A DNA stretch of 64,000 nucleotides from Promethearchaeota archaeon (GTDB taxonomy: Archaea; Asgardarchaeota; Lokiarchaeia; Sigyniarchaeales; SOKP01), in the NCBI GenBank assembly GCA_048937405.1, contig JBHLNF010000005.1, forward strand, positions 160,001 to 224,000, written 5' to 3'. The notes beneath the pieces are model-generated. The model had not been told where the DNA came from, did not search any database, and saw only the letters and a program-made list of their open reading frames with translations. Position numbers and translations under genes: made by a program. This document shows positions 40,207 to 60,441 of the stretch, one piece after another. The stretch's first letter is position 1; every line of letters starts with the position of its first letter.

Positions 40207-42045
40207 TTGTACTATAGACATTTTGGAAAAGCTCTGAAACAAAAAGTTTTAGATATTCTAGTAGAAGAAATAACTAATGAAACTATTATAAGAAGTGATT
40301 CAAAAATTGATTTTCATGACTATTATAAGTTTAGAGTTGCATATATTACAGAAAAAAAAAATGATTTAATATTTTTATTTGTAACAAGTTTAACTGACAA
40401 ATTCGAAAATATAAAAAAGGAATTGGAAAAATGCAAGAATGAATTTCTGAATTTATTTGAGGATATACTACAGCATCGATATGACGCTAAAACTTTTGAA
40501 GTTTTTGATCCCACCATTGATTCTATCCATAGAAATTTACGTCCTAAAATATCTTTGGTTGGTTTTTCAGGAGTTGGAAAAACAACAATAACTAAATTAA
40601 TTAAAGCCGATGAAATACCTATGCAACACATACCAACTATTACGGGGGATATAGCAACTATTAGAATTGGGAAACTACATTTTCATTTATGGGATTTCGC
40701 TGGTCAAGAACAATTTAGTTATTTATGGAATAATTTTATAAAAGGTAGTGATGCAGTTCTTTTAATTACTGACTCTACATTAGAAAATGTTGAAAAAAGC
40801 AAATATTTTCTTGAATTAATAAAAGAACAAGCCCCTAATGCTCAATCTGCTGTAATTGGTAATAAACAAGACTTAAAAAACGCAATGAATCCAGTTCAAA
40901 TTGAAAATGTTTTGAGATTAAAAGCATACTCAATGATTGCACTTGAGCCTCAAAATCGTGATAAAATGATACAAATAATTGCAGATGTTTTAGAAATGAG
41001 TGCAGAAGTTTCACCATTATTAAAACCTTTGCTTGAAAGAGATAAATTAACTGAAGAAGCCGTAAATGCCGTAAAAAGTGCGGATTTTGATAAAGCTGCA
41101 TTTTTGTTTGATAAAATTAGTGATTTATGTATAGATTTAGGAGATGATTCTTTAGGACGAGAATTTTTTGAAAAATCACAAAAAATAAAAGAGATGTTAA
41201 AAAAGGTTGGTCCATCTCCACCGACTCAAGCTGTATCTACCGATAAAAAAGAACCAGAAAAAATAATAGTTCAACAAACCACAATAAAACCAGAACCACC
41301 CATATTACCTCCTGAAGATACAAAAAAAATTGAACAAACAATAGAAATAATGAAAAGTGAAGAAACTTCAGGACTGTCCAAATCAGATATGAATGAAAAA
41401 GTATCCGAACCAGTTACAAAAATTCCTGAGGAAACAGAATCATCTAAAGAAATTATTATTCCAAAAGAAAAAATTAGTTTAAAATTGAATCCAGAAGATT
41501 TTTTGGTAAAATCAAGACCAAAAACTGTAGAAATTGTTCCAGAAGATGCAAAATCAAAATTAAAAATGTCAAATTTAGCACAAACAAAACCCACCGAAAA
41601 ATCTAATGTCTTAACACCTGTTTCACCAATTAAATTAATGGAACAAAAACAAAAAATAAAGCCACCTCCTAAAACATCTAGTATCTCAAGAGAGCCATTA
41701 ATTTCTGTAGAAAGCAAAATCTCAACAAATAAAATATCTTCAGTTGAAAAAGAAATATCAACAAGTGCTATTGAAGAAAAAACAGAAATTCCATCCAAGC
41801 CCGATAAGAAAACGCAAGAAACTCAAGTAATTGAAAGTAATCAAGCAGAAAGTTTGAAGAAATCAATATTAGATCTAAAAATAAAAAAAGCGAATTTAAC
41901 AAAGATGGCTCTTGATTTCGATATGAAGGAACTTACGGGTGAAATTACATCAGAAGAGTTAAACGAAAAAAAAGCAAAAATTAATGAGTTAATTCAAAAA
42001 GTTGATAACGAAATTCAAGATTTACAAAAACTTTTGAATACTTAA
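40207..42045 (+). CDS. longin domain-Arf/Rag-like small GTPase fusion with low-complexity linker and coiled-coil/SHOCT-like tail
   Basis: G1 GFSGVGKT, G2 PTI, G3 WDFAGQ, G4 NKQD; about 110-aa N-terminal longin-like domain; frame is open back to 40162. Confidence 0.85.
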   Translation: MYYRHFGKALKQKVLDILVEEITNETIIRSDSKIDFHDYYKFRVAYITEKKNDLIFLFVTSLTDKFENIKKELEKCKNEFLNLFEDILQHRYDAKTFEVFDPTIDSIHRNLRPKISLVGFSGVGKTTITKLIKADEIPMQHIPTITGDIATIRIGKLHFHLWDFAGQEQFSYLWNNFIKGSDAVLLITDSTLENVEKSKYFLELIKEQAPNAQSAVIGNKQDLKNAMNPVQIENVLRLKAYSMIALEPQNRDKMIQIIADVLEMSAEVSPLLKPLLERDKLTEEAVNAVKSADFDKAAFLFDKISDLCIDLGDDSLGREFFEKSQKIKEMLKKVGPSPPTQAVSTDKKEPEKIIVQQTTIKPEPPILPPEDTKKIEQTIEIMKSEETSGLSKSDMNEKVSEPVTKIPEETESSKEIIIPKEKISLKLNPEDFLVKSRPKTVEIVPEDAKSKLKMSNLAQTKPTEKSNVLTPVSPIKLMEQKQKIKPPPKTSSISREPLISVESKISTNKISSVEKEISTSAIEEKTEIPSKPDKKTQETQVIESNQAESLKKSILDLKIKKANLTKMALDFDMKELTGEITSEELNEKKAKINELIQKVDNEIQDLQKLLNT

Positions 42046-44742: not shown

Positions 44743-45267
44743 CTAAATTCTCGAATCAATAATTCGACGTGTTAATTCAGTAAAAGCTTCATCGACATTA
44801 ATTCCCGTTTTCGCAGAGGTTTCAATATAAATACTACCCTCATTTTCAGCGAATGAACGGGCTTCATCCCTATCTATTACCATACCAACATCTTCTATTA
44901 AATCGGCCTTATTTCCAATAAAAACAAAGGGTATCTTTTCACCCGCAAATTGCCTTATCTCGGTAAGCCACTTTCTTGTTTCTGTATATGTCTGTTCTCG
45001 AGTTAAGTCAAAGACTAATAATGCTCCCGCAGCACCTTTATAGAATGTACTACGAATAAATTCAAAACGTTGTTGCCCCCCAATATCCCAAATACTTAGT
45101 GTGGCAATCTCTCCTTGCCTAAATTCAACATCTTTAGTTAAAATATCTACGCCTACAGTTAATTTATAATTAGCTTGGAATCTATTCTTTATGAAACGCT
45201 GAACAAGACTAGTTTTTCCTACAGCAGCTGCCCCTGTTAATAATACTTTTAACTTAAAACTTGACAT
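44743..45267 (-). CDS. Rab-like small GTPase
   Basis: GAAAVGKT, TVGVD, WDIGGQ.RF, FYKGA, LVFDLT, NKAD, ETSAK. Confidence 0.92.
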   Translation of the reverse strand: MSSFKLKVLLTGAAAVGKTSLVQRFIKNRFQANYKLTVGVDILTKDVEFRQGEIATLSIWDIGGQQRFEFIRSTFYKGAAGALLVFDLTREQTYTETRKWLTEIRQFAGEKIPFVFIGNKADLIEDVGMVIDRDEARSFAENEGSIYIETSAKTGINVDEAFTELTRRIIDSRI

Positions 45268-45471: not shown

Positions 45472-47427
45472 CTATCTCTTCGGTATTTCGTTATATTCTT
45501 TCAAATTTTTAAATAGATCGAGTTTTAGGTGAGGAAAGTACATTGCTTCAGCATATTCTTTTTGAAAATTCTTATCTATAGCAATTTCAACATATTTAAT
45601 TTTGTTTAAAAGCTCTTGCGCCTTGTTTCTTAAATCTTGATTTAATAAACAGTGTTGTGCTCCTACTCCAGCAGCATTTCCTATTTGAAAAATACACTCA
45701 TCATTAATATCTGGAATCATTCCTATAAATTTTGCATTTTGAGCGTTTATATAGTTACCAAAAGCACCTGCTAAGAAAATTTGTTTGATAATTTGATAAC
45801 TTTTCAAATTATTCATAATAATCCGGGTTCCAGAATAAAAGGCTGCCTTTGCCATTTGAATTTGTCTTATATCGTTTTGATTAATTGAAATCTCCTTATT
45901 TATAGAAGTATCATCTTTATCTGCTATAATGAAATCTATTTTCTTATCTTCTTTTATGAATCTTTCATGATTAATATAATCTTGATTAAAATTTCCGCTC
46001 CTAGTAATAATCTTAGATTTTAACATCTCTGCTATAACATCAACTAGACCAGAACCACATATTCCAATTGGTTTTTTGTTTTTAATTGTAGTATAAGATA
46101 CATCAAAATCCTTAGAGTCAATTTGAACTGTGTCTATTGCTCCTGCTGCTGCTCTCATCCCATTGCTAATATGAGCTCCTTCTAAAGCAGACCCTGCTGC
46201 ACAAGATCCCACAAATAAATTCTTTCGATTACCAATGATAATTTCACCATTAGTACCAATATCAATTGCTAAAGTAAGAGATTTTTCATTATAAATTTGT
46301 GAAGAAAGTATTACACCAATAGTATCAGCCCCAACAAAACCCGCAATAATAGGTGCTGTATATACATTCCCAAATTTAGAAATATTAAGATTTAGTCTAT
46401 TTGCTTTTATATTAAAATTTTTTTGAATAACAGGGATAAACGGACTTATTCCTATATTGATAGGATCAAGTCCCAAAAAAATATGATGCATAACAGAATT
46501 TCCTACAACAGTAGCTTCATAGATCTGAGAAGGATCGATTTTTGCTATTTGACATGTATTTGAGATAATTTCATTCAAGTCTTTAATTACAATAGAACTT
46601 AATTTTTGAAGATATTCTTTACTATCCTTTATAAGTGTTAATCTTGTTATTAGATCTTCTCCATAGGCTGTTTGGCTGTTCATTTTTGAACTGACAGCAT
46701 AAGTCTTACCATTATTTAAATTGATTAAATAACCTACTATAGTTGTTGTTCCAATATCAAAAGCAATTCCATAATTGTCTTTGATGGTATTACCTGGCTC
46801 ACAAGCAATGATATTAGTATTATCCCATAAAACTAGTGTTATCTTATGATCATTTTCCCTTAAGATTTTAGGTAATTTTTTCAAAACATTAAAATCGATA
46901 TTAAGATTGTTATATTTCTTTATTTTTGGAATAGAACTTTTTATTGATGCTTCAATTCTTTCAAAATCAGCATCAGGTTCCTCTAATGATGGACTTCTTA
47001 CTTCAATGTAAACTTTTTGAATAGTTGGATTTATTTTCACTCCTTCACTTTTTCCTGCAATTAAGATGTTAAAATCTTCCAACAATATATCATTTGGGAG
47101 AAATATTCGGAATTGAGGATGGGGAAGTGTTTGTAGATATTCTGATTGTTCCGTATTAAGCTTTGTTTGACAAGCAAGTCGCCATCCATTTCTTAGTTCT
47201 TCCTCATTTACATATCTCTTTTCATTATTAGTTGGAGGATTTAAAAATTCTTTTCCTTTTTGTACTGAAATTTTGCATTTTCCACACGTTCCTAATCCAC
47301 CACAAATTGATCTAATTGGTATGTCTAAATCTAAAAGGATTTCATAGAGAGAGAGATCACTTGGAAAATGCACCCTTCTGGAAATTGGTTCAAAATCAAT
47401 AATTATATTTCTTTTCTTTATATCCAT
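45472..47427 (-). CDS. ASKHA-domain 2Fe-2S protein, reductive activator of corrinoid proteins (RACo/AcsV-like)
   Basis: CGGLGTCGKC...RLACQ ferredoxin; DIGTTT, GFVGAD, DIGTNGE, GICGSG, LAGAFG, GNAAG. Confidence 0.9.
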   Translation of the reverse strand: MDIKKRNIIIDFEPISRRVHFPSDLSLYEILLDLDIPIRSICGGLGTCGKCKISVQKGKEFLNPPTNNEKRYVNEEELRNGWRLACQTKLNTEQSEYLQTLPHPQFRIFLPNDILLEDFNILIAGKSEGVKINPTIQKVYIEVRSPSLEEPDADFERIEASIKSSIPKIKKYNNLNIDFNVLKKLPKILRENDHKITLVLWDNTNIIACEPGNTIKDNYGIAFDIGTTTIVGYLINLNNGKTYAVSSKMNSQTAYGEDLITRLTLIKDSKEYLQKLSSIVIKDLNEIISNTCQIAKIDPSQIYEATVVGNSVMHHIFLGLDPINIGISPFIPVIQKNFNIKANRLNLNISKFGNVYTAPIIAGFVGADTIGVILSSQIYNEKSLTLAIDIGTNGEIIIGNRKNLFVGSCAAGSALEGAHISNGMRAAAGAIDTVQIDSKDFDVSYTTIKNKKPIGICGSGLVDVIAEMLKSKIITRSGNFNQDYINHERFIKEDKKIDFIIADKDDTSINKEISINQNDIRQIQMAKAAFYSGTRIIMNNLKSYQIIKQIFLAGAFGNYINAQNAKFIGMIPDINDECIFQIGNAAGVGAQHCLLNQDLRNKAQELLNKIKYVEIAIDKNFQKEYAEAMYFPHLKLDLFKNLKEYNEIPKR

Positions 47428-47632: not shown

Positions 47633-50600
47633 TTGCAAAATCCAGAGGAATTAGCTCAGGAAGCTTTAAAATATTTAGATATCGCACAAAAACTTGAAGA
47701 AGAAAAAGAATTTGAAAATGCAATTTCGCAATATCAACAAGCTGCTGATTTTCTTAAGCAAAGTGGATTTTTAATGCATAGAGTTCAGGAAATTTACGAT
47801 AGAGTAAGTGAATTGAAAGATTTTCTACAGAAAGAAAAGCTTTATCAACAAATAGAACATAAAACTCAAAGTGTACAATTGCAAGAACGAGGATTCGCTT
47901 TATTAGACAGAGCTAAAAAATTAGAATTTGATGGTCTCTTTGAAGATGCTATTCAACAGTATTCATCTGCAATTCAATTACTAAGTCAAGCTGGTTGGTC
48001 TGAAACCCAACTATTTGAATTAAAAACAAAAATTAACCGTCTTTCTCAAGAATTTGATAAAAGAAAAACAACCCTAGAACCACAAAAACAAATACCTGAA
48101 TCACAGAGTCCCCCCATACAATTAATTCAGGATGAAAAACCTCAAATTGTTGGAATGTTTGGCCAGAAAAGTAGTATAGAAAAGGAAGAAGTTATAAAAC
48201 GTTTTAGAGAAAAAAGAAAATATGAAGAAAATATTCAAAATCAAGCGTTTGAACATATTGATGCGGCAAAATTATTTGAAAAAGATAAGAAATTTGATGA
48301 TGCGATATTGAATTATGAGAAAGCCATTGGTTTATTAACTTCCATTGGTTGGACCATTCAAATCCAAAATATCCAATCCATAATTGAAAAACTCAAAAAA
48401 GATAAAATAAATTTCGAATCTTTTCAAGTTAAACCTTCTACAACTTTAGAAACTACTGACATTGAAGAGGAGAAAGTTATATTAGAGAAAAGAGCAAAAT
48501 TAGCCAAAGAGAAATTAAACAAATTTGAACTGAAGAAAAAACATGAGGAACAAGTACAAAATGAAGCCTTCAATTTGATAGATATTGGCAATAGATTTGA
48601 AAGAGAAAATAAGTTTGATGAAGCAATTGAAAAATTTGAACAGGCAATTCAATATTTTAAATCTATAGAATGGGATTCTTATGTACATCCCATTAAAGGC
48701 TTTATTAATCAAATAAAAGAGAAGCAGGAGAGAGAGAAAAAAGCGGAAAAATTAATTGAAAAGAGACAAAAAGATTTAACCATTCTTCAAGATTCGATAT
48801 ATTTAAAGCAAAGAGAGCAAATTTTCAAATCAGCAAAAGAATTAGACAAGAAAAGAAGAGAATTTGAAGAAAAAACAAAAGTTGATGCAAAGAAAGAAAA
48901 AGATCTCTTTGGAATATTAGATAAGGCGGATAAAATTTTAAAAGAGAAAAATTTTGATGATGCTATAAATGAATATCAAAAAGCTTTTTCTATTTTAAGC
49001 GATTTGGGTTCTGGATGGGAAACTTATACATCCATGATAAAAAATACTATTTCTAATGTTGAGAAATTAAAAAATTCTTACCTTACTAAAAAACTTGATG
49101 AGCAAAAGAAATTAGAAGAAAAAGAACGTGAAGAAATTGAATTTCAAAAGCAAATTTTAACTCAATTAGATAAGGAGCGAAGCCAATTAAAAGAGAAAGA
49201 AATTATTATCAAAGATCATGAAGAGGAAATTAAGCATTTTGAACAACGTAAAAAAGTTGGATTTGAGTACTTAGATTCTGCCATGGATTTCCTGATACAA
49301 GGTAAATATGAAGAAGCTATATTAGCATATCAAAATGCTGCCAATATTTTTGCCGAAATACAATGGACGGAGGAGATTCCTTTAATTGAAGTATCAATAC
49401 AAGAAGTTGAAGAATTGCAGAGAACTCAAAATATCATCGAGCAGAGGAAACTAAAAGATGCTATTGAACGTCAAAAGAAAGAGGAAGAGTTTCAAAAACA
49501 AGTTAATAAATATTTAAGGCAAGAAAGGGAAAAATTAAAGAAAAAAGAAGTTGAATTAATGGAACGGGAAAAGATGGTAAAATATCAAGAAGAAAGGAGC
49601 ATTGCAGGATTCAAATTACTAGATCAAGCTCAAGACAATTTAGAACAGGGAAATTTTGATGATGCCATTGAGATTCTAAAATATGCCATAAATTTTTTCG
49701 CTGATATTAATTGGCAGAATGAAATTAATCTAATACAGAATTCCATTATAGAAATTGAAAATAAAAAACGAGAAGCTGTAATTCAAGATCAAATTAAAAT
49801 ACAAGCAGAAATTGAACGAGAAAAGCAAGAAAGACTATTTCGGGATTATGTTACAGGGGAAATGAAAGCACAACAAGAGAAATTTGAAAAAAGAGAAATT
49901 ATTTTAAGAGAAAGAGAAAAAGAAATTGCTTTTCGGGAAAATAGAAAACAAGAAGCTTTTAACTTACTAGAGACAGCACAAGATCTTCTTTTAAATGGGA
50001 AGTTTGATGATGCTCTTGAAATTTATTATAATATAGCGAATATCTTTGCACAAATTCAATGGAATGAAGAAATTTCAATAATTCAAGAAGCAATTCAGAA
50101 TATAGAAGAAAGAAAGAGAGAGAATGAAATAAATAAACAAAAATTAATGCAAAAGTCAATAGAAAAAGAAACTGCTGATAAAGCTTTTATTGAGCAACTT
50201 AGGTATCAAAGAGGGAAGAAACGAGCTGAAATTTTGAAAGAGAAAGAACAAATTGAAAAACAAAAACAGCTTTCTGCTCAAAATTTGGTAAAACAACAAA
50301 AAGCATTTAAATTGATAGAAGATGGAGAAAATCTTATCGAAAAAGGAATTTTTGATGATGCAATAAGTAATTATAATGAAGTTATAGAAATTCTGAAAGA
50401 AATTGGTTGGGAAGAAGGATATCTCTCCCTATTACGTGACAATATACGATCTTTTAAAGCAAAGAAAAGGGATTATGAAAAAGAAAAACAAAATGAATTT
50501 GAAATTAAATTAAAGCAACAAAAAGAAGAAGAATTATTTCAAAAAAGAATAACTGAATATATGAAAAAAGAGCAGGAAAAAATTCAAGCTAAAAAAATTG

Positions 50601-53600
50601 AGATTCATCAAAAAGAAGATTTGTTAAAAAAAATGGAAAGCCGAAAATTAGAAGCATTTAAGGCAATGGAAGTTGCAGATAAGTTATTAAATGAAAGTGA
50701 TTATGATGGAGCTATCGAGAATTATATTCAAGCAGAGTTGATATTAAATGAAATTAATTTTCCAACTAATGTTATTAGAGATATAATTCAAACCATTCAA
50801 GAGAAAAAAAGAGAAGAAAACCTAAACAAGATGAAAGAATTAGAACAAAAATATAGAAAACAACGTGAAGATGAACTCTTTCAAAAACAAATCTTGGAAA
50901 GAATAAAATTAGAAGAACAAGAAATGAGGGAAAAGCAAGAAAATCTATTGAAACAAGAGCAATTGAGGATCATAGAAGAACAAAAAAAACAAGAGGCATT
51001 CAATATATTAGATGACGCTAAAATAGGAATTAAAGAAATGAAGTTTGATGAAGCAATTGATTTATATAATAATGCCAAAAAGATATTTCTAGAAATTCAA
51101 TGGGAAGATCAAGTTAATTTAATTGATAAAGCTATTCTTACGATTGAGAATAAAAAAAGAGATACAGAAGTACAAAAACAAAAGAATCTAGAAAATAAAA
51201 TTCAGCAAGAGCAACTAGAAGTTACTTTCCAAAGAAATCTTGTTAAGGAAATGGAAATTGAACGTAAAGAATTAAAGAAAAGACAAATAAGTCTTAGAGA
51301 AAGAGAAAAAGAACTCATTTATAGAGAAAAAAAGAAAGAAGATTCATTTAAACTATTAGATCAAGCACAGGATTATCTTTCACAAGGCAAATTTGATGAA
51401 GCAATAGAACTTTATGAAAATGTGGCAAATATATTTGCTCAAATTCAATGGACTGATGAAATTCCAATCATAAATAAAGCTATACAGGATATTGAAAATA
51501 AAAAGAGAGAAAGAGATTTAATAAAACAAGAAAATTTTCAAGAGATAATAAAAAAGGAAAAATCTGAACAAGAGTTTATGGAAAAAATAAGGGATCTGAA
51601 GGAAAAGGAAAAATTAAAAGCTCTTGAAGAAAAAGATTCAATACAAAAGCGAGAATTGAGTATTTCTCAAAATTTAATCAAGCAAGAAGAAGCATTTAAT
51701 TTGATAAATCAAGGATATGATTTACTTAATCAAAAGAATTATGATAAAGCATTAGAAAATTATCAAAATGCAATAACTATCCTTACTAAAATAGGATGGA
51801 CCCATGATTATTTAAAACTTCTTAAAGATGCTGTAAAAGCCATTGAAATAAGAAAGATTGATGTTGAAAAAGAGAAAGTGCTTGAAAAAGAATTATTTAT
51901 GAAACATCAACAAGAAGAAGAACAGTTCCAAAAGAAAATAACAGATAGTATGAAAATTGAACAGAAAAGATTACAAGCAAAAAAAATTGAAATTCAGAAA
52001 AAAGAACAATTAAAACACGTAATGGAGAGTCGTAAAGAGGAAACCTTTAAAACTATGGAATTGGCTGAAAATTATTTTAATCAAAAACAATATGATAAAG
52101 CAATTGAACAATACCGCCAAGCAGAGTTAATTTTGAATGAAGTTGGCTTTCCAACTAAAGTAATTAGAGAAATGATAAATAAAATTCAAAATAAAGAGAG
52201 AGAAGAATGGCTAAATAGTCAGAAAGATCTAGAAAATAAACATCAGAAGGAGAAAGAAAATTATGAATTTCAATATAAAATCACAGAAAGCATTAGATTA
52301 GATGAAATTAAGTTAAAAGAAAGAGAAAATAAAATTCAGAGACAAAGAGAACTCCAAAAATACATGGAAAAAAGAAGGGAAGACGCCTTTAATCTTCTCG
52401 AAGAAGCAGAAGGATTCATGAAACAATCTCAATATGATAAATCACTTGAATATTATCATGCCGCTGAATTAATATTAAATGAAATTGCTTTTCCAACAGA
52501 TTCGATAAGGGATTTGATTTTAAAAGTTCAAAAGAAGAAACGAGAGTACCAACTGCAAAAACAGAAGGAATTAGAGCAAACTATTAAAAGGGAAAGAGAG
52601 GAATGGAATTATCAACAAAAGATAGTTAAGGAATTACAAAATGAAAAAGAACGATTGAAAGTAAAAGAAATAGAGGTATTAAAAAGAGAAGAATTGAAAT
52701 CAAAATTAGAGAAAAGAAGAGAGCAAGCATTTAAGATATTAGAGCAAGGAGAGGGCTTCTTAAAAGAACAAAATTATGATAATGCGATAGTCTGTTATAG
52801 AAGGGCAATGCAATTTTTAAAAGAACTCCAGTTTCCAACAGATTCTATAAATAATATGATAATTAAAGTTAATAAATTGAAAAAGCAAAAAGAAAAAGCA
52901 GAACGTTTAAAATTTGAAAAAGAACTTGATAGAATCGAAGAAGAAAAAGCCTTAGAAGTTTTAGTAGAAGAAAGAAAGAGACAAGAAAGGGAAAAAATGG
53001 AAGCGCAACAAATAGCACTAAAAGAACGAGAGAAAATTATCCAAGAAAAAATGAGTGTAAGAGAATCGGCATATTCTCTTTTGGAAGAAGCTGGGACTTA
53101 TTTAAAACGTCGAATTCCAAACTACAATGAGGCTATTTCATTATATATTCAAGCACGGCATATTTTAGCGGATAATATAGGATGGGAACCTGAAATTAAT
53201 AATTTGAATATATTAATTAAAGATTTACAGCAAGAACAAGCTAATTTCCTCAATAAAAAGCAATTAGAGGAACAAGCTCGTTTACAACGTCAAAATGAAT
53301 ATGCCTTATTTCAAGAAGAAGTTAGAAAAAGAAGGTTAGAAAAAGAAAAATTAAAACGGGAACAAGAAAAACAATATCGCGAGTTACTATATAAAAGAAA
53401 ACATATTGAACAAATTAAAAGTGAAGGATTAAGACTCATTGATGAAGGGAAAAAAAATGCAAGGTATCATGAATTCGAAAAAGCCTATGATAATTTTGAA
53501 GATGCAACTAAAAAGTTTAGAGAGATTGATTGGAAAGAAGAGATAAAATATATTGAGACTGAAATTAAAAATACAAAAATATTAGAAGAAAAAGTAAGAA

Positions 53601-53995
53601 AAGAAGAAAAGAGAATTCAACTAATACAGGAACAGTTAGAAAAACAAAGAATTTTGGAAGAAGAGCGTAAAAAGGCTGAGGAATTAAAACTGAGAGAAAC
53701 CGTTATTGAAGTTGGTGAATTAACTGAGGAAGTATCAGACATAATCGAAGAAATTAAGCAACAACAAAAACTAGATGCTGAAATTCAAAAAAAGAAGATT
53801 AAATCTAAAGCCAAAGACTTTCGTAAGGAAATGAGTAATTTAATAAAATTTAAACAAGAACTTTCTGAAGAAATAGCAAAGAAAGAAGCAGAAAAAAGAA
53901 AATTTGAAGAAAAATTACAGATGTCAAAAGAAAGAGAAGAAATTGATAACCTTAAAAGAATGATTAAAGAAACTTCTAAAAAGAAAAAAAGGTAG
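47633..53995 (+). CDS. giant repeat protein: 18 MIT/TPR-like helical units separated by E/K/R/Q-rich helical spacers
   Basis: Recurring AF..L..A......F/YD.AI..Y..A...(L/F)..I.W/F unit about every 115 aa. Confidence 0.8.
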   Translation: MQNPEELAQEALKYLDIAQKLEEEKEFENAISQYQQAADFLKQSGFLMHRVQEIYDRVSELKDFLQKEKLYQQIEHKTQSVQLQERGFALLDRAKKLEFDGLFEDAIQQYSSAIQLLSQAGWSETQLFELKTKINRLSQEFDKRKTTLEPQKQIPESQSPPIQLIQDEKPQIVGMFGQKSSIEKEEVIKRFREKRKYEENIQNQAFEHIDAAKLFEKDKKFDDAILNYEKAIGLLTSIGWTIQIQNIQSIIEKLKKDKINFESFQVKPSTTLETTDIEEEKVILEKRAKLAKEKLNKFELKKKHEEQVQNEAFNLIDIGNRFERENKFDEAIEKFEQAIQYFKSIEWDSYVHPIKGFINQIKEKQEREKKAEKLIEKRQKDLTILQDSIYLKQREQIFKSAKELDKKRREFEEKTKVDAKKEKDLFGILDKADKILKEKNFDDAINEYQKAFSILSDLGSGWETYTSMIKNTISNVEKLKNSYLTKKLDEQKKLEEKEREEIEFQKQILTQLDKERSQLKEKEIIIKDHEEEIKHFEQRKKVGFEYLDSAMDFLIQGKYEEAILAYQNAANIFAEIQWTEEIPLIEVSIQEVEELQRTQNIIEQRKLKDAIERQKKEEEFQKQVNKYLRQEREKLKKKEVELMEREKMVKYQEERSIAGFKLLDQAQDNLEQGNFDDAIEILKYAINFFADINWQNEINLIQNSIIEIENKKREAVIQDQIKIQAEIEREKQERLFRDYVTGEMKAQQEKFEKREIILREREKEIAFRENRKQEAFNLLETAQDLLLNGKFDDALEIYYNIANIFAQIQWNEEISIIQEAIQNIEERKRENEINKQKLMQKSIEKETADKAFIEQLRYQRGKKRAEILKEKEQIEKQKQLSAQNLVKQQKAFKLIEDGENLIEKGIFDDAISNYNEVIEILKEIGWEEGYLSLLRDNIRSFKAKKRDYEKEKQNEFEIKLKQQKEEELFQKRITEYMKKEQEKIQAKKIEIHQKEDLLKKMESRKLEAFKAMEVADKLLNESDYDGAIENYIQAELILNEINFPTNVIRDIIQTIQEKKREENLNKMKELEQKYRKQREDELFQKQILERIKLEEQEMREKQENLLKQEQLRIIEEQKKQEAFNILDDAKIGIKEMKFDEAIDLYNNAKKIFLEIQWEDQVNLIDKAILTIENKKRDTEVQKQKNLENKIQQEQLEVTFQRNLVKEMEIERKELKKRQISLREREKELIYREKKKEDSFKLLDQAQDYLSQGKFDEAIELYENVANIFAQIQWTDEIPIINKAIQDIENKKRERDLIKQENFQEIIKKEKSEQEFMEKIRDLKEKEKLKALEEKDSIQKRELSISQNLIKQEEAFNLINQGYDLLNQKNYDKALENYQNAITILTKIGWTHDYLKLLKDAVKAIEIRKIDVEKEKVLEKELFMKHQQEEEQFQKKITDSMKIEQKRLQAKKIEIQKKEQLKHVMESRKEETFKTMELAENYFNQKQYDKAIEQYRQAELILNEVGFPTKVIREMINKIQNKEREEWLNSQKDLENKHQKEKENYEFQYKITESIRLDEIKLKERENKIQRQRELQKYMEKRREDAFNLLEEAEGFMKQSQYDKSLEYYHAAELILNEIAFPTDSIRDLILKVQKKKREYQLQKQKELEQTIKREREEWNYQQKIVKELQNEKERLKVKEIEVLKREELKSKLEKRREQAFKILEQGEGFLKEQNYDNAIVCYRRAMQFLKELQFPTDSINNMIIKVNKLKKQKEKAERLKFEKELDRIEEEKALEVLVEERKRQEREKMEAQQIALKEREKIIQEKMSVRESAYSLLEEAGTYLKRRIPNYNEAISLYIQARHILADNIGWEPEINNLNILIKDLQQEQANFLNKKQLEEQARLQRQNEYALFQEEVRKRRLEKEKLKREQEKQYRELLYKRKHIEQIKSEGLRLIDEGKKNARYHEFEKAYDNFEDATKKFREIDWKEEIKYIETEIKNTKILEEKVRKEEKRIQLIQEQLEKQRILEEERKKAEELKLRETVIEVGELTEEVSDIIEEIKQQQKLDAEIQKKKIKSKAKDFRKEMSNLIKFKQELSEEIAKKEAEKRKFEEKLQMSKEREEIDNLKRMIKETSKKKKR

Positions 53996-54142
53996 AAATT
54001 AATATTTATCTTTAAATTCTTTAAATTTAAAAAGAAATTCTAACTATTTGTCTTAATTATTATTTTTTGAATTATTTGGAAACATATCATTAAAAGAGTT
54101 TAAATTAAGATCTTGAAATAATAATTATAACAACAAAAAGAA

Positions 54143-55738
54143 GTGTTTTATAAAATGATTGAAAAACCAGAGGATATTGTTAAGTCACGTATGTATGCTA
54201 GACAACAGCTAATTGATGGATGGGATCAAACTATAATTGATAATGGTGTTATTATGATAATTGGTGTTGGAGCTTTGGGTTGTGAAATTGCTAAAGATTT
54301 TGCTTTGATGGGAATTGGTAAATTGATCCTTGTTGATCTTGATACTATTGAAACCTCTAATTTATCACGTCAAATGCTCTTTAGACCAGGAGATGAAGGA
54401 CGAGCAAAAGCAGAAGTGGCAGCAGAAAGATTGAAGGAGATGAATCCTTATCTAAAGGTTGATTTCTACTTTGAAAAACTCCAAAAATTACCAATAGCGG
54501 TTTATGAAGAATCTGATGTAATAGTGGCAGCTTTAGATAATTTTAATGCTAGATTAGATCTAAATAAGATATGTTTAAGATTAAAAAAGCCAATGGTCGA
54601 AGCGGGGACAGTAGGATTTGAAGGACATTGCCAAATAGTAATTCCTGAGGGATCTGGATTGCAATACAAGAATAAGGAAAGCGAAATCGAGAATTTGGTT
54701 CAAACAAGGCTTTGGGAGATAACCGAAATGGAATATCCCGAATATTTCGAAGCACAGAAAAGAATTGAAGAACTTGAAGAAGAAATTGAAAATATTAGAG
54801 CTGAAAAAATTATTCCTTTAGAAGAAAAATTTAGAAAGGAAATTGAGATGGTTTTTGATTGGAAGTATGCTCCGGAATTATTAGACCAAACTCCTTGTTA
54901 TAGATGTTTAGTACCAATACCCCCTGCTGATGATAAACTTGTGGCAGCATGTACTTTAAAAGGTCTACCACGCAATAGAAATCATTGTGTAATTAAAGCT
55001 GAAGTAGAGTTTGAAAAGAAATATGGTCATAAACCTGACCTAAATTTAAATGATGAAGTAATAAAATTAAAAGAATTAGCACAAATTGAATTAGAAAAAT
55101 TAAGAGAACGGGTTCTTGATGAAAACCTTCCACCAGAAACAAGAGATTCTTTATCTGAAGAGGAAATTAAGGAATGGAAAAAAAATATTGAAGAAACATT
55201 TGGACCAAATTATAAGTTTGAAGAAATGGAGAATATACTTGGGAATAAAATTGCTGCAATACAAACTGTTAGCTCAGTTATAGCTAGTATTCAATCTCAA
55301 GAAGCATTAAAACTTCTTTTTAGAGTAAATGGGAGAAATATTGGTACTCCAATGGATCCTCCTTACATTAATTACAATGGAATTTATGGCCAATTCGATC
55401 ATCTAAATATAATAAAAAGAGAGGATTGTCTTGCTTGTGGAAAAATTGAAGGGGAAGAAAATGTACAAATTGTAGTTCCTTTTGATGCGGATGTCGGGTA
55501 TGTTTTTAAAGCCTTGAAAATAACAGGATATGAATTAAATCCAGAATTATGGATGATTACTAACCCAATGACAAAAGAAATATACTGGAATCCATATATG
55601 CCTTCATTAAAAAATCCAAAGATTAAATTAACTTCCTTAAAGGTTAAAAGCAACGACATAATTTCGATGACTCCTTTAGGTAAAGCATTAGTAGAATCAG
55701 AAATTAAAAAGTATAATGTCATAGTTGCATTTATGTAA
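54143..55738 (+). CDS. eukaryote-like ubiquitin/Ubl-activating enzyme E1 (ThiF adenylation + Cys domain + UFD-like C-terminus)
   Basis: YARQ, GVGALG, DLDTIETSNLSRQ, ALDN..AR, PCYRC, CTLKGLPR...HC, CLAC; ATG at 54155 is the likely start. Confidence 0.9.
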   Translation: MFYKMIEKPEDIVKSRMYARQQLIDGWDQTIIDNGVIMIIGVGALGCEIAKDFALMGIGKLILVDLDTIETSNLSRQMLFRPGDEGRAKAEVAAERLKEMNPYLKVDFYFEKLQKLPIAVYEESDVIVAALDNFNARLDLNKICLRLKKPMVEAGTVGFEGHCQIVIPEGSGLQYKNKESEIENLVQTRLWEITEMEYPEYFEAQKRIEELEEEIENIRAEKIIPLEEKFRKEIEMVFDWKYAPELLDQTPCYRCLVPIPPADDKLVAACTLKGLPRNRNHCVIKAEVEFEKKYGHKPDLNLNDEVIKLKELAQIELEKLRERVLDENLPPETRDSLSEEEIKEWKKNIEETFGPNYKFEEMENILGNKIAAIQTVSSVIASIQSQEALKLLFRVNGRNIGTPMDPPYINYNGIYGQFDHLNIIKREDCLACGKIEGEENVQIVVPFDADVGYVFKALKITGYELNPELWMITNPMTKEIYWNPYMPSLKNPKIKLTSLKVKSNDIISMTPLGKALVESEIKKYNVIVAFM

Positions 55739-57132: not shown

Positions 57133-57651
57133 TTAATCTATTGCATATTTCTTAGTCCAGGCACTTGCTTTTGCCTCAAACTTCTTTTGAGCACGAAAAT
57201 ATTGTTCACCTGCTTCATGATTTAATGGATCTCCTGGATTAAAAAAGGGAGGTTCTACATGCATCATGCCTTTTAAAGCTTCTATTATATTTGTGAGAGT
57301 TTTACTTGGAGTCCATCCAGAAGCTCCAGTGCTAGCATCAACCTTTCCTACCAAATCGGGATTGATTAAATCTAAACAAATATTTAATTTTCCAGGTGGA
57401 ATTGAAGAATCAATATTAGGATGCCACATTAAAGTTACTGCATAAGCATAAGGAGGTGCAAATGGATAATTCTCTGGGAATTTGATTTCGAAAATAAACT
57501 TACCATCCGCATAGGGAGTTCCTTTCTTTCCGATGATAGTAAGTCTTAAATGATCGATACTTCTTCCCCATGGTTCTAAAATAACATTAGCATCATTCTT
57601 GTATGCTTCGATTGCTTCAGTATAATCTGTTTCTTCTCTGATAATTATCAC
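57133..57651 (-). CDS. ubiquitin-conjugating enzyme E2
   Basis: GTPY.DG.F, FPENYPF.PP, HPNI, catalytic ICLD, W.P, PLN.EA, WTKKYA. Confidence 0.93.
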   Translation of the reverse strand: MIIIREETDYTEAIEAYKNDANVILEPWGRSIDHLRLTIIGKKGTPYADGKFIFEIKFPENYPFAPPYAYAVTLMWHPNIDSSIPPGKLNICLDLINPDLVGKVDASTGASGWTPSKTLTNIIEALKGMMHVEPPFFNPGDPLNHEAGEQYFRAQKKFEAKASAWTKKYAID

Positions 57652-57944
57652 CTATCATTTGAATTTGCTTTTAAATTGTAATTGATATATTACTTTAATT
57701 TTATAAAAATATTGTTCAATTGATAAAAAATTTTTCACAACAAAACTAAATTATATTTTTAAGGTTGAAAATTTTTAGTTTAATATCTTAATAAAGTAAA
57801 TATATTTGAAGTTTTCTTAATCAAAAAATAAAAAAAATTGCATACAAAAAAATGTAGAAATCATATTTTTGTGTTATTCAATTTTATCAGTAAAAAACAA
57901 AAAAAATATATTAATTCTATAATTATTTATTTTTAACTTAACAA

Positions 57945-58124
57945 CCCCTCTTAACTCAGACTGGTAGAGTACTCGGCTGTAGATATTATCGCGTAATAAA
58001 GCTTATTGCTAATGAAATTACGTCAGCTGAGACCGAGTGTATTGGAAAAAACCATACCGGTAAAGGTCGCCGGATCGAGGTGAATCCCTCAAAGAAATTC
58101 ACGATACGCCGGCAGAGGGGACCA
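57945..58124 (+). tRNA. tRNA-Tyr(GUA) with three introns (57983-58031, 58038-58063, 58080-58107) and encoded CCA
   Basis: Spliced form folds fully: CCCCTCT/AGAGGGG acceptor (C1-G72, A73), ACTC/GAGT D-stem, CTCGG/CCGAG anticodon stem with CTGTAGA loop, AGGTC, GCCGG/CCGGC T-stem. Confidence 0.88.
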
Positions 58125-58133
58125 TTAATCTCA

Positions 58134-58140
58134 TTTTTTT
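58134..58140 (+). terminator. oligo-T tract after the tRNA, candidate archaeal terminator
   Basis: T run about 10 nt downstream of CCA. Confidence 0.4.
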
Positions 58141-58497
58141 ACAAGAATTTTAAAATAACACTTCACAATTATTTACAAAAATATTCTTAATCTCTCTATA
58201 GATCATTTTTAACAATTTTACTGAGTAATTTTCTTAATCTAAACCATTTAAATACATCTTTTTTAAAAGAATTATTATATTCAATGTTTTCCCAAATGCC
58301 TTTATAAGTGAGAAAGAGATATTTTTAAAATAACGCAAATTGAAAAAAAACTATAGATTCCTCTTATAGTATTATCTAATAATAGGGGAAAAAGAAAAGA
58401 AGTATAGTATTTCTGAAGTGCATAATTTCTTTACATCATTAGACAGATTTCCAGGTTTTAAATTAAAATTAATTTAATTCTAATTTTTTAATTTTTT

Positions 58498-60441
58498 CTA
58501 ATATTTGTTGTTATTTTTTTTGTAAGTATGAAATTTGAAAATTAGATAGAAGAGGGATAAAGAATATGAGAGTAAAAAGAATATTATTTCATATCCATTA
58601 ATTCTTTTTCGTGGTTCTAATAATATCTCTAAGTAGGTGTTAAAGTTTGAATCTAACTGAACTAGTACTTCATCCCCATATTCCAATCTTACCTTAGTTG
58701 GTTTATTACTTAATGAAATATCTAGCGTTGTTGTTCCATTTATCCATATCCATTCATTATAAGTTATTCCATTAGAATTATATACTATTAGTTGAACTTG
58801 CTGAGAGTAATGATAATCATTTAAGTGTTCATTGAGATCATTAATTGTGAGTTCTAGGATTTGAAGGTTTGCATCATAATGACATTCAAGGAAATTATAT
58901 TTTGGAAGAAAAAGATTATCAAACCAAGGAAAGAAAAACCAATCCAATGAGGAACCATACACACTTTCCATAGCTTGTTGTAAATCGGATAAGAGAGCAA
59001 TTTTATATATCTTTTGAGTAAAAAAAAGTCTCAATCCCGTTAAAAATAATGTAGTGCCAAGAGTTCTACGTAGTTTCTCAAATATTAAAGGTGCTTTAGT
59101 ATATGCAGTAAAATAATAATTATCTTCATTGACCACCTCGTATACAGAAACATTTATTTTTGACGATATTCCTTCACGAACATAATATGTTCTTACGCTA
59201 TCGATATAAGGTGTTTCTTGAAAATATTCCCAATTATTATACTTTATTTCCCCATAATAACTTGTTGACCAGCAAACTAACCCTTCATCTAAGAAACCCC
59301 AGTCAACTTCATCATTTCCAACTAAATTATACCACCACTGATGCCCTGTTTCATGAACAATAATAGCTTCTAACCAAGTTAGAGGATATGACCATTCATC
59401 TATAGATTCTGTTATATAAACCTGACATGGGTATTCCATTCCTCCATAATATGTATATTCTTCCACAACATTAAAAGTTGGATATGGATATTCACCAAAG
59501 GTTTCATTAAAAAGTGTTAATGCTTGTTTTGCAAAATTTATTGCATTATTTTCCCATATTGTTTTAGATTTTGGTAAGTAATAGCTAGTTATATTCACAC
59601 CATTTATTACTTCAGATTCCTGATAGAAATATCTTGAGGTTGAAAAACTTACTTCTCTAACTGGATGAATTGGATCGAAGTGATATGTTGTAATTGATCC
59701 ATAGTCTATTTTATCGACTATTTCCCCAGTTGCCGCAACAATCATTCCTATTGGTACAGTAATGTAAAAATCATAATAAGCCATATCATAATAGAAAGGA
59801 TCACCAACCCCAAGATAAGGATCTGTATTCCAACCATCATAGCTATCATACACACAAGGCATAGGGTAGAATCCTGCACATTTATAGATTCGAGATTTAT
59901 TAATATCTCCACCATGAGAATTAGAGCGGTCAATCCCCCCATCAGGTAACGTAGCATTGAAGTATATCTCAAACTGAACTCGTTGAAATGGTTCCAATAT
60001 ATTTTCCAAATAAATCCACATTATTTGGTTTGCTGGATATTCATCATAAATTAAAGGTGATTTAGAAACATCAGATTTATTTACACTAATTATATCAACT
60101 AACCCTGGTCTTGAATCGTAGTTCATGCCGGATAAATAAATATGAAATGGAACTTTAGTAAAATTCACTGGATCGTTATTATAGAAATCAACTTTTAAAA
60201 TCCCTGTTAATTTCGAACTACCTTCATCTAATTGAACAGATAAATTATAGTAAGAATATTCTCCACCGTTTGATGATAATATAGGGGTTTTATTGTATTT
60301 TAACTTGGGATTACCTGGACGTGTAATAGTTTCATTTGAATTTTTTTTACCCTGAACAATATTTAGGAATCCACCAAAACACAGGCAAAAGAGGATTATG
60401 AAACAATAACGTTGAGTGTTCGATTTGATTATTATCATCAT
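58498..60441 (-). CDS. secreted M1 family metallo-aminopeptidase with C-terminal membrane anchor
   Basis: N-terminal signal-like segment, GGMEY, HETGHQWW...LDEG, YTKA; C-terminal INGY + TM + basic tail. Confidence 0.9.
   Translation of the reverse strand: MMIIIKSNTQRYCFIILFCLCFGGFLNIVQGKKNSNETITRPGNPKLKYNKTPILSSNGGEYSYYNLSVQLDEGSSKLTGILKVDFYNNDPVNFTKVPFHIYLSGMNYDSRPGLVDIISVNKSDVSKSPLIYDEYPANQIMWIYLENILEPFQRVQFEIYFNATLPDGGIDRSNSHGGDINKSRIYKCAGFYPMPCVYDSYDGWNTDPYLGVGDPFYYDMAYYDFYITVPIGMIVAATGEIVDKIDYGSITTYHFDPIHPVREVSFSTSRYFYQESEVINGVNITSYYLPKSKTIWENNAINFAKQALTLFNETFGEYPYPTFNVVEEYTYYGGMEYPCQVYITESIDEWSYPLTWLEAIIVHETGHQWWYNLVGNDEVDWGFLDEGLVCWSTSYYGEIKYNNWEYFQETPYIDSVRTYYVREGISSKINVSVYEVVNEDNYYFTAYTKAPLIFEKLRRTLGTTLFLTGLRLFFTQKIYKIALLSDLQQAMESVYGSSLDWFFFPWFDNLFLPKYNFLECHYDANLQILELTINDLNEHLNDYHYSQQVQLIVYNSNGITYNEWIWINGTTTLDISLSNKPTKVRLEYGDEVLVQLDSNFNTYLEILLEPRKRINGYEIIFFLLSYSLSLFYLIFKFHTYKKNNNKY

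Follow-up and report, generated by a model that had tools for sequence, protein, structure and literature searches.

The window analysed here is a stretch of 64,000 nucleotides (nt) from a Promethearchaeota archaeon (assembly GCA_048937405.1, contig JBHLNF010000005.1, positions 160,001 to 224,000 of the forward strand). In our labels its genome is G000, L-numbers denote loci and G-numbers genomes. At positions 47633..53995 of the plus strand it carries a gene, hereafter the array gene, for a protein of 2120 amino acids (aa) with 18 helical units. On balance, the array protein would seem to be a rigid, segmented and periodic rod that displays small bundles of a peptide-binding type and acts as a scaffold or tether. 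The anatomy of the rod and its conservation come from structure prediction and from the comparison of relatives, respectively.

The array gene is the only long reading frame at this position. It starts with TTG, with a GAGG-type ribosome-binding site approximately 10 nt 5' of this codon, and encodes a protein of 256 kDa with an isoelectric point of 6.0, of which Glu makes up 16.6% and Lys 14.9%. The G+C content of the window is 23-33%, and its plus strand is strongly enriched in purines between 48 and 54 kb. Since more than 200 cluster representatives share the gene, with length and unit order conserved, we concluded that the array gene is real. An earlier note on this DNA, which was written without database searches, had described 18 units. 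A search for the unit core [FY][DE]xA[IL] and a profile built from the units both gave this number. The units follow the pattern AF.LL..A......[FY]D.AI..Y..A..I...I.W and are located at aa 27, 103, 221, 328, 441, 559, 675, 791 and 907 (units 1-9) and at aa 1024, 1138, 1254, 1370, 1487, 1601, 1715, 1831 and 1948 (units 10-18). From unit 5 onward, the distance from unit to unit is 114-119 aa, or about 116 aa. The units of one protein are 15-50% identical to each other and keep their positions across orthologues, and Tandem Repeats Finder revealed no repeat at the DNA level in the array gene. The units are old and diverged. The protein has no transmembrane segment (Kyte-Doolittle maximum of 0.89 in a 19-aa window) and no Pfam match to a catalytic or enzyme family, in agreement with the earlier note. 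It has 16 prolines, each of them in an N-terminal linker, at a helix end or in a turn, for the most part the turn between helices 2 and 3.

The AlphaFold2 model of a single unit, built from 70 aligned units, showed a three-helix bundle (predicted local distance difference test score, pLDDT, 91.4). In a second AlphaFold2 model, covering units 7-9 with an alignment of 33 orthologues (mean pLDDT 83.6), helix 1 and a helix 2 of 17 residues form a hairpin, and helix 3 runs unbroken for about 93 residues and turns into helix 1 of the next unit. Helices occupy model residues 56-148 and 172-235, and the sole break is found at 236-242. The earlier note had spoken of MIT/TPR-like beads on a string, and the predicted three-helix units joined by long helices bear out this description.

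The assignment of the unit to a known fold is less simple. The whole array protein scored 97.7 bits with the Pfam family MIT (PF04212; cut-off 30). Most of this score is the sum of weak unit matches, and three stretches alone exceed the threshold. Several TPR families were also above threshold, including TPR_2 (69.9 bits) and TPR_1 (56.5 bits). The units fit the 34-residue helix-turn-helix pattern of TPRs, the unit profile aligns to the consensus TPR, and it is this consensus that the unit hairpin resembles best in sequence (17-18 bits per repeat). The same profile matched the MIT domains of Sulfolobus Vps4 (E 3.6e-4) and human VPS4A (E 3e-3). In a Foldseek search with the single unit, the best-fitting full-length matches were MIT domains, with template modelling (TM) scores of 0.74-0.79 for katanin p60N, 0.79-0.81 for NRBF2 and about 0.55 for Vps4, MITD1 and others, and TPR superhelices superposed poorly on the model (root-mean-square deviation, rmsd, 9-10 Å). 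An exhaustive comparison with VIA-align gave Z-scores of 8.5-10.0 for MIT domains and 9.6-9.8 for three-helix fragments of TPR proteins, in a range (below about 13) that is common for helical bundles. With the three-unit model, Foldseek returned only meaningless global fits in the PDB (rmsd 22-63 Å), and a shape search of the ESM Atlas yielded unrelated bacterial proteins with TM scores of at most 0.48.

By predicted fold, therefore, MIT and one-and-a-half-TPR bundles are indistinguishable here, and the safe label is an MIT / one-and-a-half-TPR-type bundle, not a TPR solenoid. A solenoid is ruled out by the model, in which helix 3 runs as one helix of about 93 residues into the next helix 1. 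There is only one hairpin per 114-119 aa, long helices lie between the units, and the superposition is poor, as mentioned above. A spectrin repeat is likewise ruled out by the short helix 2 and by the absence of spectrin families among the Pfam matches. The comparison by AlphaFold and Foldseek that the earlier note had proposed thus disposed of the TPR solenoid and of spectrin, while MIT domains and TPR fragments remained tied.

The helices that connect the bundles were analyzed separately. Between units 5 and 18 the spacers are 54-58 aa long, close to the 50-60 aa estimated in the earlier note, and about half of their residues are E, K, R or D (charged fraction 0.43-0.57). Strongly hydrophobic residues make up 23-30%, and 4-14 pairs of opposite charge at i/i+4 are present per approximately 56 aa. 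Simple in-house scores against shuffled sequences, not a trained predictor, were used for heptad periodicity and amphipathy. No heptad register was found in the spacers (z of -0.6 to 2.0 for a/d occupancy in the best register), and the mean z values of the local heptad score (-0.2) and of the hydrophobic moment (-0.3) indicated no amphipathic face beyond that of the shuffles. A canonical heptad coiled coil was rejected on these results, and an ER/K single alpha-helix was rejected on composition, the spacers being too hydrophobic. The earlier note had proposed one or the other, and neither proposal survived. Among orthologues the spacers are conserved as well as the bundle helices (0.70 vs 0.73-0.75), their charged residues included.

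The conservation of spacing was found to be nearly exact. In all 62 of the 62 proteins with 18 units, which share 50-87% identity, the unit-to-unit distance is identical for 14 of the 17 intervals. Of the other three, two are the Pro/Ser-rich linkers that follow units 2 and 3, and the third differs by a single residue. Within a continuous helix, the insertion or removal of one residue changes the orientation of the following bundle by about 100 degrees. The lack of insertions and deletions across approximately 1700 residues is therefore what helix geometry leads us to expect of a rigid, phase-sensitive rod. It also fits the ruler-like scaffold that the earlier note had envisaged. The number of units, on the other hand, changes in whole steps between lineages. 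Length classes of 14 units (1636-1760 aa), 16 units (1891 aa), 18 units (2108-2127 aa; the 62 cluster representatives), 20 units (2326-2349 aa) and about 25 units (2927 aa) were observed. The first six and the last four units are common to all classes, and whole units are gained or lost only in the middle of the rod.

This middle part contains a higher-order repeat. Units 7-10 (49583..50971, spacings of 116, 116, 117 and 114 aa) and units 11-14 (50972..52360) form a duplicated four-unit block with 463 aa per super-repeat. The profile of units 7-9 matches once more 1392 nt downstream, the unit pairs 8/12, 9/13 and 10/14 are 48-50% identical, and the second block is missing from the 14-unit relatives. 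These blocks, like the other segments of the rod described below, are encoded on the plus strand. A hinge with the sequence LSAQNL is predicted before unit 9 (50255..50275), where the pLDDT of the three-unit model falls below 50. By its resemblance to this hinge, ELSISQNL before unit 13 (51653..51676) is a likely second one. Units 1 and 2 make up an N-terminal head (47639..48073). Their spacing is 76 aa in each of the 62 relatives, and unit 1 carries the invariant motif LKxSG[FY]LMHR and is without the Trp present in the other units. A flexible Pro/Ser/Gln linker, the length of which differs among relatives, joins units 2 and 3 (48056..48229) and holds a semi-conserved motif, KPQVVGMFGQK. A second variable linker lies between units 3 and 4 (48410..48550).

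After unit 18 follows a charged helical tail of 134 aa (53591..53992). It ends in the motif E-I-D-x-L-K-R-M-I-K-E-x-x-KKKK (53930..53992), which is retained in all length classes and in the more distant homologues described below. This motif could bind a partner or a membrane. We also compared it with the MIM1 pattern of ESCRT-III (L-x-x-R-L). Its L-x-R-M-I shows only a loose likeness to that pattern, and the assignment was rejected.

On the basis of these features, the array protein may be pictured as a cytoplasmic, almost purely alpha-helical, segmented rod that is punctuated by 18 small three-helix bundles of the MIT / one-and-a-half-TPR type. Since helix 3 of each bundle would continue without interruption as helix 1 of the following one, both the distance and the rotational phase between bundles would be fixed. 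Helix geometry would give a step of about 11 nm and an extended length of about 150-200 nm. The rod would be segmented by the two loose N-terminal linkers and by one or two hinges, and ended by the conserved basic motif at the C-terminus. We propose that it serves as a spacer, a tether or a multivalent scaffold with docking sites at regular intervals. One or more partners would be bound through their short helical or peptide motifs, by the bundles and perhaps also by the connecting helices, which are conserved to the same degree. The exact spacing would then be a trait under selection. Internal spacing that is unchanged at 50% identity implies a mechanical or geometric role, such as that of a ruler, a spacer or a multivalent platform.

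It is worth noting that several points weigh against this picture. The structure is a predicted one and the length of the rod is arithmetic. The predicted TM score of the three-unit model was 0.38, as expected for an extended chain, and leaves the relative orientation of the bundles unfixed. The three-helix bundle is a common arrangement, in which MIT and TPR fragments tie at Z-scores of 8.5-10. Strong hydrophobics at 23-30% are unusual for a free single helix, and the spacers may instead lie against a partner, a second copy or another part of the same chain, an arrangement that the monomer model would miss. Finally, no partner was identified.

The distribution of the family was analyzed by several searches. 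A word-indexed search gave more than 200 relatives, and all the named ones came from Promethearchaeota or Lokiarchaeota metagenome-assembled genomes. When 1.84 billion cluster representatives were searched exhaustively with a profile, only 274 proteins were found, and every named one that was checked belonged to Lokiarchaeia. Among 399 genomes of the phylum, profile matches were present in 107 of the 133 genomes of the taxonomic family of the window genome (hereafter the own family), in 11 of the 14 genomes of the sister family, and in 2 of the 4 genomes of a third family of the same order. None was found in the approximately 250 genomes of all other families. The array family is thus confined to one order of Lokiarchaeia. 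We found no paper describing it, and public records name its members hypothetical or TPR repeat proteins. The sister family includes Ca. Harpocratesius repetitus, the cultured Ca. Lokiarchaeum ossiferum (NEF87_004398) and Promethearchaeum syntrophicum MK-D1 (homologue of about 988 aa). Its homologues are shorter, at approximately 990-1165 aa with 7-8 recognisable units.

Some observations on these relatives may be added. The homologues of H. repetitus (L020:8155-11652) and L. ossiferum (L021:8973-12206) contain a disordered Ser/Thr/Gln/Pro region of about 250-300 aa. This region carries several copies of a P-[ST]-F motif, five of them in H. repetitus as KPTF(L/A)xTxQxDY, and these copies look like docking motifs. 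On contig 7 of the window genome, at approximately 622-627 kb (L022:6175-11277, minus strand), there is an array paralogue of 1700 aa with MIT-like units at both ends. In its middle another kind of unit, about 180 aa long, is repeated in tandem with hardly any divergence between the copies, and the paralogue is interrupted by an assembly gap. The genes that form a run with it on the same strand are a 130-aa gene, the gene for a proteasome alpha subunit and another Ras-family GTPase gene. MK-D1 has a distant paralogue of 2547 aa, DSAG12_01611 (G143 C1:1138297-1138791), with a weak profile match, and L. ossiferum has a similar open reading frame of 2275 aa. Because of these last two proteins, we concluded that Lokiarchaeia hold several giant proteins of the array repeat type.

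The genes around the array gene were compared in eight own-family loci read in detail (the window, L008, L009, L010, L011, L013, L034 and L035). The common order is aspartokinase, a Rab-like GTPase (minus), RACo (minus), sometimes a gene of about 276 aa (minus) and the array gene (plus), followed by sometimes an S8 peptidase (minus), an E1 (plus), variable small genes, a HAD hydrolase (minus) and an E2 (minus). In the window, the GTPase of 174 aa is at 44743..45267 and the RACo-type corrinoid activator, divergent from the array gene and its neighbour in most but not all own-family lineages, is at 45472..47427. The E1 gene (54143..55738, plus strand) encodes a ThiF fold with a large insertion (193 bits). 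It starts 147 bp downstream of the array gene on the same strand, where the earlier note had placed it at a gap of about 150 bp. The note had also called the E1 eukaryote-like, and its closest solved relatives are indeed the adenylation domains of eukaryotic Uba1, UBA6 and UBA7 (138 bits vs 80 bits for bacterial ThiF/MoeB); it is nearer to eukaryotic Uba1, UBA6, UBA7, UBA3 and UBA2 than to the bacterial proteins. Two signals can be read in the intergenic gap (53996..54142, plus strand), though at 27% G+C both are weak evidence: a T7 run that might serve as an archaeal terminator and, approximately 45 nt ahead of the start of E1, a TTTAAAT box. The E2 gene (57133..57651, minus strand; UQ_con 91.7 bits) lies 1.4 kb past E1, at the distance given in the note, and it converges on E1, the two not being co-oriented. 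Every checkable point in the description given by the note thus proved correct. ARAGORN detected no tRNA at 57600-58500, though a multi-intron archaeal tRNA could escape this program.

Upstream of the array gene, a Ras-superfamily open reading frame of 612 aa (window 40207-42045, plus strand) and the 174-aa GTPase flank genes for a PHP-domain protein and the aspartokinase. The large one is syntenic in relatives, and its counterpart in L008-L010 is a Ras/Roc multidomain protein of 606-677 aa. A gene without a Pfam family, encoding a protein of about 270 aa and divergent from the array gene, was found in L. ossiferum, MK-D1 and several own-family genera (L011:8858-9688, L013:5253-6107, L021:8039-8863 and L032:7344-8150, all minus strand). 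It is not at the array locus in the window, and only weak paralogues are present, on contig 26. A 656-aa gene near the MK-D1 homologue was considered as RACo and rejected.

The neighbourhood offers two alternatives to a scaffold defined by its geometry. The array protein might be an effector, tether or scaffold of the Rab-like GTPase, with the longin-like protein of about 270 aa as regulator of the GTPase; by analogy with the long Rab-binding tethers of eukaryotes this is conceivable, if unlikely. It might also be a scaffold of the adjacent E1 and E2 that recruits enzymes or substrates along the rod, or be a substrate itself, and this we consider rather unlikely. The counts that bear on both were tallied by hand from the coordinates of profile matches, and related genomes are not independent, so that they describe inherited synteny and are not statistics. 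E1 follows the array gene on one contig, at 1-6 kb, in 77 of the 77 informative own-family genomes, and the two are far apart in none (three fragmented assemblies have them on separate contigs). This adjacency spans more than 10 genera, with E1 identity down to 62-65%, and E2 follows 1-5 kb beyond E1 in 7 of the 8 loci, none being called in L008. The company of the 1700-aa paralogue with a proteasome gene points the same way. In three sister-family genomes, however, a distance of 28-50 kb separates the array homologue from the E1 orthologue (52-54% identical). The adjacency that the earlier note had proposed to check thus holds throughout the own family and fails in the sister family. In three own-family lineages the S8 peptidase gene intervenes on the opposite strand, and co-transcription is therefore not required; the conserved block also includes the unrelated HAD hydrolase. 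No ubiquitin gene is near the array gene, the ubiquitin-like genes of the window genome being on contigs 7, 16 and 19. A second E1-like gene (425-aa frame) adjoins a ubiquitin-like gene at 335-337 kb of contig 7, and this pair looks like the compact ubiquitin cluster of the genome. The ubiquitin link, drawn from a tight adjacency that is family-wide in the own family and lost in the sister family, is unproven. The GTPase linkage is looser and holds more widely. In 65 of the 67 own-family genomes that are informative, the GTPase gene lies upstream of the array gene at a distance of up to about 10 kb (12 further own-family genomes have it on a different contig), and in 3 of 3 sister-family genomes examined it is 0.4-5 kb upstream of the array homologue, despite neighbours otherwise unrelated to those of the own family (the gene downstream is a D-aminoacyl-tRNA deacylase). 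It is 90-99% identical within the own family and 66-70% identical between the families. The protein of about 270 aa gave sub-threshold folliculin (longin) matches (20.6 bits vs a cut-off of 23.3) and weak Robl_LC7 and NPR2 leads, and from these it may be a regulator of small GTPases. On the other side, the linkage may be mere inherited synteny. At least two genomes no longer show it, the distance being 2.5 Mb in G188 and 25 kb in G149. The genomes of these archaea hold up to about 90 candidate matches to small GTPases, the gene of about 270 aa is missing from the window, and the connecting helices are without a golgin-type heptad pattern. Co-folding of aa 1-200, 640-884 and 1920-2120 with the GTPase gave a score of 0.00, which, in a run without controls, speaks neither for nor against. 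The GTPase link is likewise unproven.

Two further alternatives come from the rod itself. The first is that the protein acts as a MIT array that binds ESCRT-III and organises its polymers or measures them. The Pfam MIT score summed over the protein, the profile matches to the Vps4 MIT domains and the best-fitting structural matches all point in this direction; yet we consider it very doubtful. TPR fragments match the fold just as well, it is the hairpin of the consensus TPR that the units resemble most in sequence, and the top structural MIT matches, katanin and NRBF2, are not binders of ESCRT-III. Neither Vps4 nor ESCRT-III genes are found near the array gene, as the ESCRT link of the earlier note would have led one to look for; Vps4 and one of the two Snf7-family genes of the window genome are on contig 20, and all lie on other contigs. 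Moreover, the array family is found in one order only, whereas ESCRT is present in Asgard archaea generally (PMC11188069). The ESCRT link, which would follow from the likeness of a predicted fold, is unproven. It could also be supposed, by analogy with nebulin, that the array protein is a ruler or side-binder of a cytoskeletal filament, Asgard actin or tubulin, with a super-repeat that matches the filament period. It is the periodicity that would argue for such a role: the residue-exact spacing, the 463-aa super-repeat and the whole-unit changes between lineages. The multi-unit model also weakly matches proteins of the axonemal 96-nm repeat (TM about 0.17), a hint at most. Against this, no genes for actin, tubulin or their regulators are linked in the window, there is no sequence similarity to known filament-binding repeats, and the estimate of the step is arithmetic. 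A filament ruler is accordingly quite improbable, and we prefer the periodic docking scaffold or tether.

Such a protein would be of interest for several reasons. Asgard archaea are the closest known relatives of eukaryotes, and the organisation of their cytoplasm, protrusions and membranes is largely unknown. A protein of 150-330 kDa is kept in the large number of own-family genomes given above (107 of 133), and the roles implied by its spacing, those of a ruler, spacer or platform, are typical of eukaryotic cytoskeletal and trafficking scaffolds. Since both cultured Lokiarchaeia, L. ossiferum and MK-D1, have shorter homologues, the function is directly testable by localisation and interaction studies. 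Besides these homologues, the present analysis adds to the earlier note how far the E1 adjacency holds within the family and beyond it, the older linkage to the GTPase and the gene of about 270 aa, the conserved C-terminal motif, and the negative coiled-coil and ER/K tests.

Comparison with known systems places the array protein between several of them. The MIT proteins (Vps4, the katanin p60 N-domain, NRBF2/Atg38, MITD1, Vta1 and calpain-7) may share with it the lone asymmetric three-helix bundle of about 63-70 aa that the models predict. They carry one or two MIT domains beside an enzyme or adaptor domain, whereas the array protein has 18 units and no other domain, and neighbouring helices 3 and 1 are fused into one long helix. 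As regards the TPRs (TPR_1, TPR_2 and CTPR), helix 1, the turn and helix 2 of the array unit fit their consensus, ..Y.kqg.YdeAIe.YqkA.., but TPRs stack directly into a superhelix, while the array hairpins stand alone with about 80 residues to the next. Spectrin, as is generally known, is an elongated scaffold in which three-helix bundles form a chain and the last helix of each is continuous with the first of the next. Its repeat is 106 aa long, compared with 114-119 aa here; the array bundle is short, with a middle helix of 17 residues and about 55 residues of connecting helix outside it, and no sequence similarity was found. ER/K helices, golgins and EEA1 are alike in their long, charged, distance-setting helices, and the Rab-like GTPase neighbour recalls the Rab-binding tethers; the array spacers, however, are too hydrophobic for ER/K helices and have no heptad pattern. 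Nebulin and titin resemble the array protein in having specialised repeat subtypes in a higher-order block and lengths that vary by whole units, although fold, repeat size and organisms are unrelated. Tentatively, and with low confidence, we suggest that the array protein could represent an undescribed class of rigid, residue-exact rods: a tether or ruler of Lokiarchaeia controlled by the conserved Rab-like GTPase and a longin-like protein, with a possible secondary tie to the neighbouring E1-E2 pair, and a prokaryotic counterpart in function, not by descent, of the eukaryotic Rab-effector tethers or of rulers of the spectrin and nebulin type.

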